The notes beneath the pieces are model-generated. The model saw nothing but the letters and a program-made list of their open reading frames with translations, did not search any database and had not been told where the DNA came from. A stretch of 64,000 bases of DNA, taken from Candidatus Methylomirabilota bacterium. Its GTDB lineage: Bacteria; Methylomirabilota; Methylomirabilia; Rokubacteriales; CSP1-6. The position numbers and the translations under genes were made by a program. This document shows positions 9,896 through 14,933 of the stretch, piece after piece. Within the stretch, counting starts at the first letter, position 1. Each line of letters opens with the position of its first letter. The DNA lies in assembly GCA_035709005.1 (NCBI GenBank), contig DASTFB010000059.1:13472-77471 (forward strand), written 5' to 3'.

Positions 9896-10981
9896 TCACA
9901 GCGCCATCAGGGCGCGGGCGCGGCCGTGCGGGGGCTGATCGGCGCGCATGGTGTCCGGGTTCACGCCGCGCCGCAGCGCCAGGTGATACGTGAAGAGCTG
10001 CAACGGCACGACGGTGAGGATGGGCGAGAGCAGCTCGTTCACCGGGGGAATGGCGATCGTCTCGGCCGCAAGCGCGCTGATCTCCTGGTCGTCCTCCTGC
10101 ACGAGGGCCACGACCGGCGCGCCCACCTCCTTCGCCGCGCGGGCCACGGTCAGGCAGCGCTCGTAGGAGCGGCCGGGCGGGGCGATGACGAACACGACGT
10201 CGCGGGGGTCCAGCGCCGCCCACGGCCCGTGCAGGAACTGCTCGCAGTTGTAGCCGACCGTTACCGCGTGATTGGCCTCGTTCATCTTGAGGGCGCCCTC
10301 GAGCGCGGTCGCCGTGTTGGGGCCGCCTCCCACGAAGCAGTAGCAACGGCGGTCGGCGAAGCGCGCGGCCAGGTCGTCCCAGGCCTCCTGGCCGAGCAGC
10401 GTCGCGAGGTGGTCGGGAATGCCATCCAGGTCGCGACGCACCCCGTGATCGCCGCCGAGCGCGGCGGCCAGGGCCGCCAGCAAGGACATCGCGCACGTGT
10501 AGCTCACGGTGTGGGCGGCGGAGGATTCCTGCTCCACCGTGCGTAGCGTGTAGTCGGCGATGGCCAGGCCCTCGCCGCTGCCCTTGCCGGTGATGACCAG
10601 GGCCACGCCGCCGCCGGCTTTGGCCGTGGCCAGCGCCTCCAGGGAGAAACGCTTCGTGCCGCGGTGGCTGACCACGATCGCGCCCGTCCTGGGATCGGGC
10701 CCCGCCCAGTAGTTCTGGAACTCGAACGAGTGGAAGGCGCGGACGCGATGGCCGAGGCGGCCGACATGGGCCAGCAGCAGCTCGCCGACCAGGGTGGCGT
10801 GCCAGGAGGTTCCGATGCCCGAGAGCAGTACGCGGTCCATGGCCCGCAGGCGGTGGGCGGCCTCGTCCAGCACCGCTTCCTGCCCGCGGAGGACGAGGCG
10901 CAGGGCGCCGGGCTGGGCGTAGATGGCGTCGTGCATGTAGTAAGGATGGCCGGAGCGCGGGGGCGGTGGTGTCCAGGTCAT
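9896..10981 (-). CDS. Double-SIS-domain sugar-phosphate isomerase/deaminase (GlmS C-terminal/FrlB-like)
   Basis: MHDAIYAQP, GIGTSW, VSHRG, HTVSY, EGALKMNE, EQFLHGP, NPD; no glutaminase domain. Confidence 0.85.
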   Translation of the reverse strand: MTWTPPPPRSGHPYYMHDAIYAQPGALRLVLRGQEAVLDEAAHRLRAMDRVLLSGIGTSWHATLVGELLLAHVGRLGHRVRAFHSFEFQNYWAGPDPRTGAIVVSHRGTKRFSLEALATAKAGGGVALVITGKGSGEGLAIADYTLRTVEQESSAAHTVSYTCAMSLLAALAAALGGDHGVRRDLDGIPDHLATLLGQEAWDDLAARFADRRCYCFVGGGPNTATALEGALKMNEANHAVTVGYNCEQFLHGPWAALDPRDVVFVIAPPGRSYERCLTVARAAKEVGAPVVALVQEDDQEISALAAETIAIPPVNELLSPILTVVPLQLFTYHLALRRGVNPDTMRADQPPHGRARALMAL

Positions 10982-10988
10982 GGCGCGG

Positions 10989-11018
10989 ACTGTAGGCAGG
11001 GGCGCCACGAGGTGTCAA
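10989..11018 (-). promoter_or_regulatory. Sigma70-like promoter, probably giving leaderless SIS mRNA
   Basis: TTGACA-18 nt-TACAGT, then 7 nt to the ATG. Confidence 0.6.
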
Positions 11019-11118: not shown

Positions 11119-11266
11119 ATGACACACGCGCCGAGCGAGACCGACGTCGTCAAGATGATCGACAGCATGAGCAACTGGGGCCGCCGGGGCGCTCATGCTG
11201 ACCATTGCCCCGCTCCGCTTGCAGAACGCCACCGGCTCGCCGGTGAATCCGATCGCCGTCTTCTGA
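11119..11266 (+). pseudogene. Cyclase-family gene collapsed to N- and C-terminal stubs
   Basis: MTHAPSETDVVKMIDSMSNWGRRG is joined out of frame to MLTIAPLRLQNATGSPVNPIAVF*; both ends resemble cyclase (kynurenine formamidase-like) termini. Confidence 0.75.
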
Positions 11267-11269
11267 GCC

Positions 11270-11653
11270 GTGAGTGAAGTGAGCCCGTTCCACGCCGTCA
11301 ACATCGGCCCCCGGGAACGGCGCCGGCGACTAGCACTCGGTATCGGCATGCTGGCCGTCGGCGTCATCGTCGTGGTCGCCCTCATCGCCGGCGACGCGAC
11401 GCCGGCCTGGCTGCTCCTCGCCTTTCCCTTGTTCCTCGCCGGGGCGTTGGGGATCGTTCAGGCTCGCCAGGGGACTTGAGTGCGACTCGCCGCGCGCGGC
11501 GCGCGTGACATGGACGCCGGGCCCGAGGCCGTGCCCGACTCGGAGGAAACCCGCCTGCTCCGAGCCCAGGCCATCCGGGTCTACACCGCGTCGTTCGCAG
11601 GAGCCCTGCTCCTCACGGCTCTCGGCGTGCTGGTGGCGGGTCTGTGGGAGTGA
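11270..11653 (+). CDS. Small membrane protein with in-frame UGA (11477-11479), candidate selenoprotein, 127 aa
   Basis: NIGPRERRRRL-TM-TM-QARQGT*VRLAARGARDMD... stays open to a final TM and TGA at 11651; hairpin directly after the UGA. Confidence 0.7.
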
Positions 11654-11769
11654 GCCGACCGGCCGACGGCCGCGGCGCGGCTTGTGGGCATGTACCCGGC
11701 ATGTAATACTTCCGGCCCAAGATGAGCGGGACGCGTGCCGTGTTGGGCCGCGGCGGGTAGTTTCGCGCC

Positions 11770-11967
11770 GTGCGAGCGCGGGATCTGCTGCCTGCCTGTT
11801 TCCTGCTGTTCACCGCGCTGCTCGTCTGGCCGCTCCTGAGCATCCCCAACCGGGCCGTCCTGGTGGCCGGGCTCCCCTCCCTGGTGCTCTACCTGTTCGT
11901 CATCTGGATGATCATCGTCGCCGCGCTGGTCTGGGCGGCCCGGCGCGGGAATGGGGACGGCCCATGA
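11770..11967 (+). CDS. Small two-TM protein preceding SLC5-kinase 1
   Basis: 65 aa hydrophobic ORF; ATGA overlap with the next gene; similar to 20110-20310. Confidence 0.8.
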   Translation: MRARDLLPACFLLFTALLVWPLLSIPNRAVLVAGLPSLVLYLFVIWMIIVAALVWAARRGNGDGP

Positions 11968-14933
11968 GGGCCACTCCGCTCGTCGCCGTCCTCCTGGCCT
12001 ACCTCGTCTTCCTGTTCCTGGTTGCCGCCGTCGCCGAACGCTTCCGCCACCGGCTCATGGCGCCGCGCCTGCGCACCCTGACCTACGTGATGGCCATCTC
12101 GGTCTACTGCACGGCGTGGACGTTCTATGGCAGCGTGGGCCTGGCCGCCAACCGCGGGCTGGAGTTCCTCACCATCTATCTGGGGCCGGCCCTGGTCGCG
12201 CTGATGTGGCCAACGGTGCTCCGCAAGCTGGTCCGCGTCGCCAAGGAGCAGCGGATCACCACGATCTCGGATTTCATCGCCAGCCGCTACGGCAAGTCGG
12301 CGTCGCTGGGCACCCTGGTGGCGGCGCTGGTCGTGTGCGGGATGATTCCCTACATCGCGCTCCAGCTCAAGGCGGTGACAGTGACGTTCCAGATGATGAT
12401 CCGGGAGGACTCGGTGCTGTCGGGGTACGACCCCGCGATCCTGGTGGCCGGCACCCTGGCCCTCTTCGGCATCCTGTTCGGCGCGCGCAACCTCGACTTC
12501 ACGCGCCAGCAGACGGGGCTCATGACGGCAGTGGCGGTGGAGTCCCTCGTCAAGCTGGTCGCCTTCCTGGCCGTCGGGGCCTTCGTCACCTGGGGGCTCT
12601 TCGACGGATTCGCCGCGATCTTCGCCCGGATCGTCGAGCACCCCGAGTGGTCGGCGCTCGTCACCCTGGGCGCGGCGCCCACCGCCTCCTACGACCGCTG
12701 GGCGGCGATGCTCCTGGTCTCGATGGCGGCGGTGATGTTCCTGCCCCGGCAGTTCCACGTGCTGGTGGTGCAGAATCCGGACGAACGCGACGTGCACACC
12801 GCGGCCTGGGCCTTCCCACTGTACCTGCTGGCCATCAACGCGTTCGTGCTCCCCATCGCCTTTGCCGGCCTGCTCACCTTCGGGAGCGGGACGGCGGCGG
12901 ACAGCTTCATCCTGGCCTTGCCGCTGCACGCTGGGACGGAGCTGATGGCCGTCATCGTCTTCCTGGGCGGCTTCTCGGCCGCCACGGCGATGATCGTCGT
13001 CGACTCGCTGGCGCTCTCCAAGATGATCTCCAACGATATCGTGCTGCCCATCGTCCTGCGGCGCCGCCACCTCGAGGAAGTCTACTGGGTCGGCCTGGCC
13101 TCGACCCGGCTGGGCATCCTGGTCGTCGTCATCCTGGGCTACCTCTGGGCTCACTTCGAGCGCGGCCAGTTCCTGCTGGTCGAGATGGGGTTGCTCTCGT
13201 TCATCGCGGTCGCTCAGTGCGCCCCGGCCGTGCTCCTCGGGCTGTACTGGCGGCGGGGCTGCCGCACGGGCGCGCTGACCGGCATCTCCCTGGGCTTCGC
13301 GCTGTGGTTCTACACGCTCATCATCCCGGCCCTGGTGAAGGAGGGTGTGCTGCCGATCTCTGTCCTCGAGCAGGGGCCGTTCGGCTTCTGGTGGCTGCGC
13401 CCGACGGCGTTGCTGGGCCTGGAGGGCCTGAATCCCCTCAGCCACGGCGTGTTCTGGTCGCTGCTCCTCAACATCGGCTCCTACCTGCTGGTGTCGGTCA
13501 TCGCCACCCAGGACGCCGACGAGCGCGCCCAGGCGGTGGCCTTCGTCGGGGGCGCCGCGGTGGAGCCTTCGCGAACGCCGGCCATCCTCTCGGTGCCCGA
13601 GATCGAGCGCCTGCTCCACCTCTACGTGCCCGCCGAGGAGGCGGACGCCATCCTGCGCGAGTTGCTGGTCGGCAAGGCTCCGCGGGAGCTGTCACTGCCG
13701 GACCTGCTCGACCTGCGCATCCGCCTGGAACGGATCATGGCCGCCTCGCTGGGCGCGGCGGCGGCGCGTTACATCATCGAGGACCGCTTCACCATCTCCA
13801 AGCAGGAGGCCAGTCAGCTGGTCGAATCCTTCCAGGCCATGCAGCGGTTGTTGCGGCAGAGCGAGCAGCTGCTGGCATCCGTCGTCGAGAGCGTCGACGA
13901 CTGCATCTTCACCACCGACATCGACGGGCGGCTGATCACCGTCAATCGGGCCGGCCAGCGGCTGCTGGGCCTGAGCGCCGGTGCCACGCCCGGCCAGAGC
14001 TACCTCGACGTGCTGGACGAAGCCGATCGACGCAGAGTCGGCCCGGCCATCGAGCAGGCCGTCGCCGACGGGCGGGCCTGGCGCGGCAACGTCAGCGCCC
14101 TCACGCGCAGCCGCCAGAGATTCCCCGCCCACCTGGCCATCGCCTGCGTCTTCGACGCCCAGCGGCGGGTCCTGGGCACGGTCGGCGTCCTGCGCGACCT
14201 CACCGAGCAGGTGGCGACCCAGCAGCGGCTGATCCAGCGGGAGAAGCTGGCCTCCCTGGGAGAGATGGCGGCCGGCGTGGCCCACGAGATCCGCAACCCG
14301 CTGGGCGGGATCAAGATGGCCACCCGCTTGCTCGCCTCGGGGGAGTTCAGCCGCGGTCGCATTCCGCAGGAGATGGCCCACACCATCGTGACGGGCATCG
14401 CCGAGATCGAGCGGATCATCACCGATCTGCTCGACTACGCCCGGGAGACCCGGCTCGATCCCCAGGAGTACCCGCTGGGCCTCATCCTGGGGCCGGTGGT
14501 CGCCGCGGCCGCCACCGAGGGCGAGCAGCGCGGCGTGCAGGTGAGGGCGGAAGGTCTGGAGGACGACCTCGTCGCCGCGGTCGACGGACCGCGCCTGCGG
14601 CAGGTCGTCAGCAATCTCATGAAGAACGCCCTGGAGGCGACCGAGCGCCATCCCCAGGGCCGGGTCACCGTCCGCCTGTACCAGCGGTACTCCGCCGCCG
14701 TGGTGGAAGTCGCCGACAACGGCGTGGGGATCGATCTCGAGCATCGAGACAAGATCTTCCTGCCCTTCTTCACCACCAAGCCGACGGGCACGGGGCTCGG
14801 CATGGCCATCGTCAAGAAGATCATGGATCTGCACGGCGGCGAGATCGAGGTCGACAGCCGGCCGGGCCAGGGCACGACGGTCCGGCTCGTCTTCCCGCCG
14901 GCCCCGCTGGCGGCGTCAACCAGGGTCGGATAG
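11964..14933 (+). CDS. SLC5 (sodium:solute symporter)-STAC-like-PAS histidine kinase (CrbS/CbrA-like)
   Basis: YCTAWTFYGSVG, IPYIALQLKA, FLPRQFHV, AATAM; PAS domain; H-box AHEIRNP, N-box NLMKNA, DNGVG, FFTTK, GTGLG. Confidence 0.9.
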   Translation: MRATPLVAVLLAYLVFLFLVAAVAERFRHRLMAPRLRTLTYVMAISVYCTAWTFYGSVGLAANRGLEFLTIYLGPALVALMWPTVLRKLVRVAKEQRITTISDFIASRYGKSASLGTLVAALVVCGMIPYIALQLKAVTVTFQMMIREDSVLSGYDPAILVAGTLALFGILFGARNLDFTRQQTGLMTAVAVESLVKLVAFLAVGAFVTWGLFDGFAAIFARIVEHPEWSALVTLGAAPTASYDRWAAMLLVSMAAVMFLPRQFHVLVVQNPDERDVHTAAWAFPLYLLAINAFVLPIAFAGLLTFGSGTAADSFILALPLHAGTELMAVIVFLGGFSAATAMIVVDSLALSKMISNDIVLPIVLRRRHLEEVYWVGLASTRLGILVVVILGYLWAHFERGQFLLVEMGLLSFIAVAQCAPAVLLGLYWRRGCRTGALTGISLGFALWFYTLIIPALVKEGVLPISVLEQGPFGFWWLRPTALLGLEGLNPLSHGVFWSLLLNIGSYLLVSVIATQDADERAQAVAFVGGAAVEPSRTPAILSVPEIERLLHLYVPAEEADAILRELLVGKAPRELSLPDLLDLRIRLERIMAASLGAAAARYIIEDRFTISKQEASQLVESFQAMQRLLRQSEQLLASVVESVDDCIFTTDIDGRLITVNRAGQRLLGLSAGATPGQSYLDVLDEADRRRVGPAIEQAVADGRAWRGNVSALTRSRQRFPAHLAIACVFDAQRRVLGTVGVLRDLTEQVATQQRLIQREKLASLGEMAAGVAHEIRNPLGGIKMATRLLASGEFSRGRIPQEMAHTIVTGIAEIERIITDLLDYARETRLDPQEYPLGLILGPVVAAAATEGEQRGVQVRAEGLEDDLVAAVDGPRLRQVVSNLMKNALEATERHPQGRVTVRLYQRYSAAVVEVADNGVGIDLEHRDKIFLPFFTTKPTGTGLGMAIVKKIMDLHGGEIEVDSRPGQGTTVRLVFPPAPLAASTRVG

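Follow-up and report, generated by a model that had tools for sequence, protein, structure and literature searches.

The window, which is the whole 64-kb stretch of DNA that was analysed, carries on its plus strand an open frame that is interrupted by an in-frame TGA at 11477 and that is proposed here to be one selenoprotein gene. It lies between the remnant of a cyclase-family gene and a small hydrophobic ORF followed by a sensor kinase gene. No tRNA genes were found in the 64-kb window. The features of the locus are as follows.

9896-11008, minus strand: gene for a SIS-domain protein, upstream and divergent.
11119-11266, plus strand: remnant of a cyclase-family (PF04199-like) gene, with about 25 N-terminal codons (MTHAPSETDVVKMIDSMSNWGRRGA), a frame change, and the C-terminal end (LMLTIAPLRLQNATGSPVNPIAVF, then a stop).
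11270-11653, plus strand: proposed complete selenoprotein gene, based on the reading frame, continuity of GC3, full-length homologues, and the AlphaFold2 model.
11300-11329, plus strand: N-terminal signature N-I-G-P-R-E-R-R-R-R, positively charged, preceding helix 1.
11477-11479, plus strand: UGA, proposed to encode selenocysteine (Sec, residue 70), in the motif Q-A-R-x-x-T-U-V-x-L-A-A-R-G.
11491-11507, plus strand: proposed SECIS hairpin, with the stem 11491-97 (CGCGCGC) paired with 11501-07 (GCGCGUG) and the loop GGC at 11498-500.
11651-11653, plus strand: TGA, true stop codon; the sequence beyond it is not conserved.
11770-11967, plus strand: hydrophobic membrane ORF of 65 aa, overlapping the start of the kinase gene by ATGA.
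11964-14933, plus strand: sensor kinase of 989 aa, with an N-terminal multi-pass membrane domain, PAS, HisKA, and HATPase_c.

About 200 codons are gone from the cyclase remnant. Within the window's clade, three loci (L005, L006, and L012) harbor an intact 243-aa cyclase (PF04199) gene that ends 1-3 nt upstream of the selenoprotein gene, and one of them, in a Rokuibacteriota metagenome-assembled genome (MAG; L005), also has the same order of 65-aa ORF and kinase gene after it. Across the 72 homologous loci described below, there was no universal neighbour gene; the neighbours found within clades were an HlyD_3 adaptor (16 loci), an ABC ATPase (7), DUF4386 (7), and the PF04199 cyclase in the window's clade. 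Because the neighbours vary outside the window's clade, the gene context gave no functional lead. Numerous short metagenome contigs that derive from other organisms matched the locus only at the conserved C-terminal end of the cyclase, a stretch of about 40 nt at 11227-11270, and diverged on both sides of it; the apparent depth at these positions is inflated because of these matches.

The sequence-only reading had described a 69-codon ORF that starts at GTG 11270 and ends in ...QARQGT before TGA 11477-79, and 57 further codons (VRLAARGARDMDAGPE...LTALGVLVAGLWE) in the same frame up to TGA 11651-53; both parts of this frame were confirmed. The complete frame comprises 127 codons from GTG 11270, or 124 codons from GTG 11279, the start chosen by gene callers. 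At 70% G+C, a frame that stays open for 57 codons is in itself nothing unusual, and it is the coding signal that exceeds chance. GC3 in this frame was 0.91 over the 45 codons before TGA 11477 and 0.87 over the 45 codons after it, and TGA 11477 was the sole convincing case in the 64-kb window of an in-frame TGA with a coding signal on both sides. A second candidate, on the minus strand at 249, was rejected because its base composition is that expected of an antisense frame.

The TGA at 11477 was identical in contigs from four independent soil-metagenome runs that covered positions 11200-11700. Three of the four contigs had no differences from the window over this interval, and the only difference in the fourth was a T>C at 11540, at a distance from the TGA. 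An assembly error at the TGA was rejected because the four independent soil assemblies agree. A soil metatranscriptome contig of 168 nt (11372-11539) crosses the TGA with 0 differences, at a low depth and with carry-over of DNA being possible.

Homologues were searched for with the read-through product as the query, in which Sec was written as Cys. The initial search returned proteins 119-136 aa in length that have Cys at the column of the TGA, together with entries of 72-96 aa that stop one residue short of this column. An exhaustive HMMER search over 1.84 billion cluster representatives identified 597 relatives at E<=1e-3, of which 120 reached E<=1e-10, and the family thus comprises about 600 clusters at 50% identity. 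One matching protein of 2264 aa (P0026) aligned with the query in 29 separate stretches (query residues 37-71) and probably has a repetitive hydrophobic or low-complexity sequence. In an alignment of the best 150 of the about 600 clusters plus 8 further sequences, column 70 was Cys in 143 of 157 homologues, the remainder being mostly fragments that were cut there, and column 64 was Gln in 140 of 157. The motif around column 70 was Q-A-R-x-x-T-C-V-x-L-A-A-R-G-x-R-[ND]-[LM]-D-x-G-x-E-x-[VI]-x-D. The pattern that the sequence-only reading had given for such membrane proteins, NIG.xE..RR-TM-TM-QAxxxxC, was therefore correct.

In the DNA of the short entries, column 70 was TGA, followed in frame by V-x-L-A-A-R-G... 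and the final hydrophobic helix. In the loci L001, L004-L007, and L010, this column was TGA, with V-x-L-A-A-R-G-x-R-[ND]-x-D following in the same frame. A metagenome scan with the pattern N-I-G-P-[RLG]-[EGQ]-[RQA]-R-R-R detected 80 loci. Among 72 distinct homologous loci available as DNA (window included), 49 carried TGA and 23 carried TGY (Cys) at the column, and the downstream part was conserved in all 72; the alternation of Cys and TGA with conservation on both sides, which had been suggested earlier as a check on the Sec reading, was thus observed. The number of residues beyond the column was the same in Sec forms and Cys forms (median 53). In species-representative genomes, the sole match was a Candidatus Rokuibacteriota MAG with 70% identity, which likewise had TGA. 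Cys forms are known from Gemmatimonadota, Zixibacteria, Microbacterium, and one haloarchaeon. The family is widespread in soil bacteria. Of the closer relatives retrieved from metagenomes, more were Sec forms than Cys forms (49/72), and the window's own sequence was recurrent in soil metagenomes.

The dN/dS values for codons +11 to +48, which lie past the hairpin, ranged from 0.10 to 0.46, similar to the range in the upstream part. On the maximum-likelihood tree, the Sec/Cys label needed at least 7 changes, and branches with good support forced at least 3 of these; L036 (TGA), for instance, was sister to L090 (Cys) with a support of 100/98. The window fell within a well-supported clade of 8 loci, all of them Sec forms, which included the Rokuibacteriota MAG. 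Families of selenoproteins are classically recognised by repeated exchange of Sec and Cys at a single invariant Cys, and because the exchange recurs at such a position here, the data are very difficult to explain by a split gene or a pseudogene.

The decay of the upstream neighbour, the cyclase remnant, would fit a nonsense mutation in a pseudogene, or a sequencing or assembly error, at the TGA. However, the same TGA was found in four independent assemblies, 48 distinct loci besides the window's carried TGA at column 70, the downstream dN/dS was 0.1-0.46, and GC3 was kept across the TGA. The chance that the codon is a lesion or an error of this kind is considered to be close to nil.

Gene callers produce exactly the halves that would be expected if UGA 11477 were a true stop, with two small membrane proteins (66-69 aa and 47-57 aa, the latter starting at GTG 11480 or ATG 11510) that associate after translation. 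A GTG lies next to the TGA in 37 of the 49 Sec forms, and an ATG (Met81) is found 10 codons further on in many of them. However, the split would have had to arise at least 3-7 times independently, each time exactly at the family's most conserved Cys, and reinitiation directly after the TGA is impossible in 12 of the 49 Sec forms, in which GTC or ATC follows. Residues 71-80, which separate the TGA from the ATG, show protein-level conservation in the Cys forms as well, and the hairpin that is specific to the TGA forms, at the spacing of a SECIS element, would be left without a role. Termination at UGA 11477 is thus highly improbable, and the downstream part as a gene of its own, which had been named as a possible refutation, was not supported, full-length Cys forms being the norm.

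The annotation of this gene agrees with the earlier expectation that pipelines would split or truncate it. The Logan calls on identical contigs consisted of a 66-aa protein (from GTG 11279) and a 47-aa protein (from ATG 11510), and the GenBank entry for the Rokuibacteriota orthologue is a 66-aa hypothetical protein. An exact look-up of the 69-aa ORF found no entry because the callers begin at GTG 11279.

Bacterial SECIS elements are stem-loops located immediately 3' of the UGA; their apical loop contains a G and lies about 16-37 nt from this codon. In the window, the loop GGC at 11498-500 is the codon of Gly77, the seventh codon past the UGA, and the proposed hairpin had a folding energy of -11.6 kcal/mol; an alternative register of 5 bp pairs 11493-97 with 11503-07 around the loop GGCGC. 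In every TGA form, the GGN codon of the loop lies 19-21 nt past the UGA, which corresponds to nt 22-24 when the U of the UGA is counted as 1. RNAalifold analysis of seven Sec forms predicted a 6-bp stem, GCGCGC/GCGCGC, which pairs alignment columns 16-21 with 25-30 around the GGN codon of Gly77. All 49 Sec forms had at least 4 contiguous pairs closing on GGN (mean 5.9), whereas the Cys forms (n=23) had a mean of 1.4 (Mann-Whitney p=4.5e-12, a value that overstates independence, the Sec forms being phylogenetically clustered). Two registers were needed to accommodate all Sec forms, one with a 3-nt loop (the window's clade) and one with the 5-nt loop GGUCN. The hairpin is thus specific to Sec forms and, with GGN at nt 22-24, is placed as a SECIS element would be.

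Other comparisons between the two forms pointed in the same direction. The mean minimum free energy (MFE) was -11.5 kcal/mol in the Sec forms and -7.2 kcal/mol in the Cys forms. The core pairs (columns 18-21 with 27-30) were kept in 43-46 of 46 Sec forms, compared to 6-12 of 21 Cys forms. Compensatory variants, including GCGCUG/CAGCGC and GCGCGA/UCGCGC, were present; they were few overall, the stem being mostly invariant GC. The covariation score for the register with the 3-nt loop was above those of all 500 shuffles. The Gly77 codon was GGT in 32 of 49 Sec forms versus 2 of 23 Cys forms. The peptide A-R-G-L-R was encoded by GCGCGCGGTCTGCGC in all nine Sec forms that contained it, and the five Cys forms that contained it differed both from GCGCGCGGTCTGCGC and from one another. 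Synonymous sites in this segment are frozen in the Sec forms only.

Folding of single sequences did not reach significance (z about 0.2 to 1.6, with one value of -0.07), and the MFE fold differed from sequence to sequence. For the window's sequence by itself, G22 and G23 are paired in another structure in the MFE fold, and the energies of three alternative hairpins differ by no more than 5 kcal/mol. The single-sequence fold is ambiguous because the local sequence is a GC repeat. The sequence-only reading had chosen a different hairpin, in which CGCCG 11488-92 pairs with CGGCG 11497-501 and GCG 11482-84 with CGC 11502-04, around the loop CGCG 11493-96. This structure does exist in the window (-11.1 kcal/mol), but the register that is conserved is a different one; over 46 TGA homologues, 60.6% of its cells were paired, which was no better than in shuffled or slid controls.

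The family hairpin was compared with a sequence that we take to be the SECIS element of E. coli fdhF, with the loop G22-G23-U24. This query was present with at least 95% identity in 5419 of 5426 E. coli genomes, and among the matches listed it was 100% identical and located inside fdhF. Both elements have an in-frame UGA at a catalytic Cys/Sec column and a hairpin directly 3' of it inside the coding sequence, and in both the apical loop opens with the GG of a GGN glycine codon at +7; the loop codon GGU of fdhF is the seventh codon past the UGA, in the same place as Gly77 in the window. Many family members even have the loop GGUC(U/A), which are the loop letters of fdhF itself. On the other hand, the family hairpin lacks an evident bulged U, and its stem consists of only 4-7 bp of GC repeat. 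The loop of the window is GGC, with C where fdhF has U24 (GGU). Furthermore, the family protein is unrelated to formate dehydrogenase, and the family hairpin is a putative SelB-binding element.

Read-through of any type would explain the downstream conservation equally well, including decoding of the UGA by a near-cognate Trp or Cys tRNA, by a suppressor tRNA, or through a lineage-wide reassignment of UGA. However, the recoded site is always an invariant Cys, which is a hallmark of Sec, and the hairpin fits a SelB-type SECIS element by its position and its GG loop. TGA is the terminal stop in 20 of the 49 Sec forms, including the window's own gene (11651), and the 64-kb window contains no other convincing in-frame TGA; reassignment of UGA (code 4 or 25) was rejected on these two grounds. 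In addition, the lineage is described as rich in selenoproteins in PMC13188914, where one Methylomirabilota MAG is reported to have 63 selenoprotein genes. Recoding of the UGA as anything other than Sec is accordingly very unlikely.

The earlier proposal that UGA 11477 encodes Sec is strongly supported by the Cys column, the alternation of TGA and Cys, the selection on the downstream part, and the hairpin of the Sec forms. These comparative data suggest, with a probability of about 90%, that 11270-11653 is a single gene encoding a membrane protein of approximately 127 residues in which UGA 11477 is decoded as Sec. For the rest of this reading, namely the recruitment of SelB, the topology, and the chemistry of the selenol, we infer the following. 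With the UGA in the ribosomal A site, the GC-rich hairpin would begin 12-14 nt downstream, and its apical G-G-N loop (nt 22-24) would occupy the position of G22-G23-U24 in the fdhF element. The loop would recruit SelB-GTP-Sec-tRNA(Sec) by the established bacterial pathway, Sec would be inserted, and translation would proceed up to the stop at 11651. The result would be a three-helix product with its selenol at the cytoplasmic surface of the membrane.

AlphaFold2 prediction of the read-through product on an alignment of 11 sequences gave a pLDDT of 92.8 and a pTM of 0.83. The model contained helices at residues 14-40, 45-67, and 91-127, with Sec70 just after helix 2, a short helix at 71-75, a beta-hairpin formed by 78-80 and 85-87, and a beta-bridge at residue 12 in the N-I-G motif. 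The beta-hairpin corresponds to the conserved acidic segment 78-87 (D-x-G-x-E-x-V-x-D), and the last approximately 20 residues of helix 91-127 are predicted by the model to be the third membrane span. In the N-terminal signature, N11 was invariant, I12 and G13 were invariant or nearly so, and R20 was invariant in every smaller alignment. Because the N-terminus and the Sec loop are rich in arginine, the positive-inside rule would place the N-terminal signature segment in the cytoplasm and the Sec loop at the cytoplasmic face of the membrane, with an N-in, C-out topology.

A second Cys occurs within 5 residues before N-I-G in 21 of 23 Cys forms, in 79 of 135 database relatives, and in 20 of 49 Sec forms; the window's protein is without it. 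A distant subfamily (P0178, P0204, P0183, P0188, and P0200), which is carried by the cultured actinobacterium Microbacterium sp. No. 7 and by a MAG of the archaeon Halodesulfurarchaeum, has the pattern Y-Q-P-G-V-C-N-I-G ... Y-L-Q-A-x-x-x-F-C. It provides a model of the Cys form that can be grown in culture. The presence of this second Cys before N-I-G, including in the motif G-V-C-N-I-G...F-C of the distant branch, suggests a two-thiol site that is reducible to a single selenol in Sec forms, a pattern that is confounded by phylogeny. With the same confounding, the gain of Sec may go along with the loss of the partner Cys. The selenol most likely has a nucleophilic or redox-active role, or binds a metal or a chalcogen, and it is probably paired with the Cys just before N-I-G in many of the relatives. 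The term redox-active, which the sequence-only reading had applied to the predicted membrane protein, was presumed and is not a finding.

No Pfam model matched the read-through product, its halves, or its relatives at the curated cut-off. The best Pfam match was YgaP-like_TM (PF11127, formerly DUF2892), which gave 18.1 bits for the N-terminal half (profile positions 3-50 of 66) and 15.0 bits for the full product, below the gathering threshold of 25.3 bits; 5 of 65 family members matched this model at E<0.01, with a best value of 0.0012. Both families have N-x-G-x-x-(E/D)-R-x-x-R at the N-terminus followed by two transmembrane helices, whereas the window's family adds the conserved Cys/Sec motif, the beta-hairpin, and a third transmembrane helix. 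YgaP was absent from the matches of the PDB sequence and fold searches. In Azospira, a DUF2892 gene is induced approximately 10-fold under H2S oxidation (PMC5358917), which, by analogy, hints at a connection with chalcogen stress.

Searches of NCBIfam, including its curated selenoprotein families, returned nothing at E<=1 for the read-through product and nothing relevant for ten Cys-form relatives, and there was no significant match in the PDB sequence search, PDB Foldseek, or Rfam. All database names of the relatives were "hypothetical protein". Nothing alike was found among the 119 prokaryotic selenoprotein families of a 2026 inventory (Table 1 of PMC13188914), a comparison that lies apart from the candidates of the groundwater-MAG study of Deng et al., which is cited in PMC13188914 for further unvalidated selenoprotein candidates. 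The literature search likewise found no description of the family; the study of Deng et al. was outside this search, so an earlier listing there is possible. The catalogued integral-membrane selenoproteins comprise MerT-like (PF02411), YeeE/YedE (PF04143), SaoP (NF040733), and SO_0444 Cu/Zn efflux (NF033936) proteins (PMC13188914, Table 1). They resemble the window's family in being small bacterial proteins with Sec in or beside transmembrane helices, with Cys homologues, and with mis-annotation by gene callers. In contrast, there is no sequence relationship between them, and the window's family differs in its architecture and in its single Sec without CxxU or UxxC. Within the libraries and inventories compared, the family appears to be uncatalogued both as a protein family and as a selenoprotein.

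The mechanism itself, bacterial recoding of UGA as Sec, is already well known. Selenoproteins mark sites where a nucleophile stronger than cysteine is needed, and every further selenoprotein family is a pointer to uncharacterised redox or chalcogen chemistry. The chances are about even that this gene is a founding member of a family of integral-membrane selenoproteins that is widespread and has so far gone uncatalogued, with a single selenol at the cytoplasmic surface and a one-selenol chemistry that is not yet assigned. If so, the candidate chemistries would include the handling of lipid-phase oxidants, of persulfide or selenide, or of a soft metal. The family is present in databases solely as two "hypothetical protein" fragments (66 aa and 47-57 aa), and because it is stored in this form, annotation, the databases used for metaproteomic searches, and tallies of selenium use in soils all overlook it. 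Recognition of the family would mend the annotation of this genome and of many MAGs. The compact SECIS element, with its GC stem of 4-7 bp and its GGN/GGUC loop at +22, could sharpen SECIS models for high-GC soil bacteria, and the selenoproteome of Rokubacteria/Methylomirabilota would be extended by one family.
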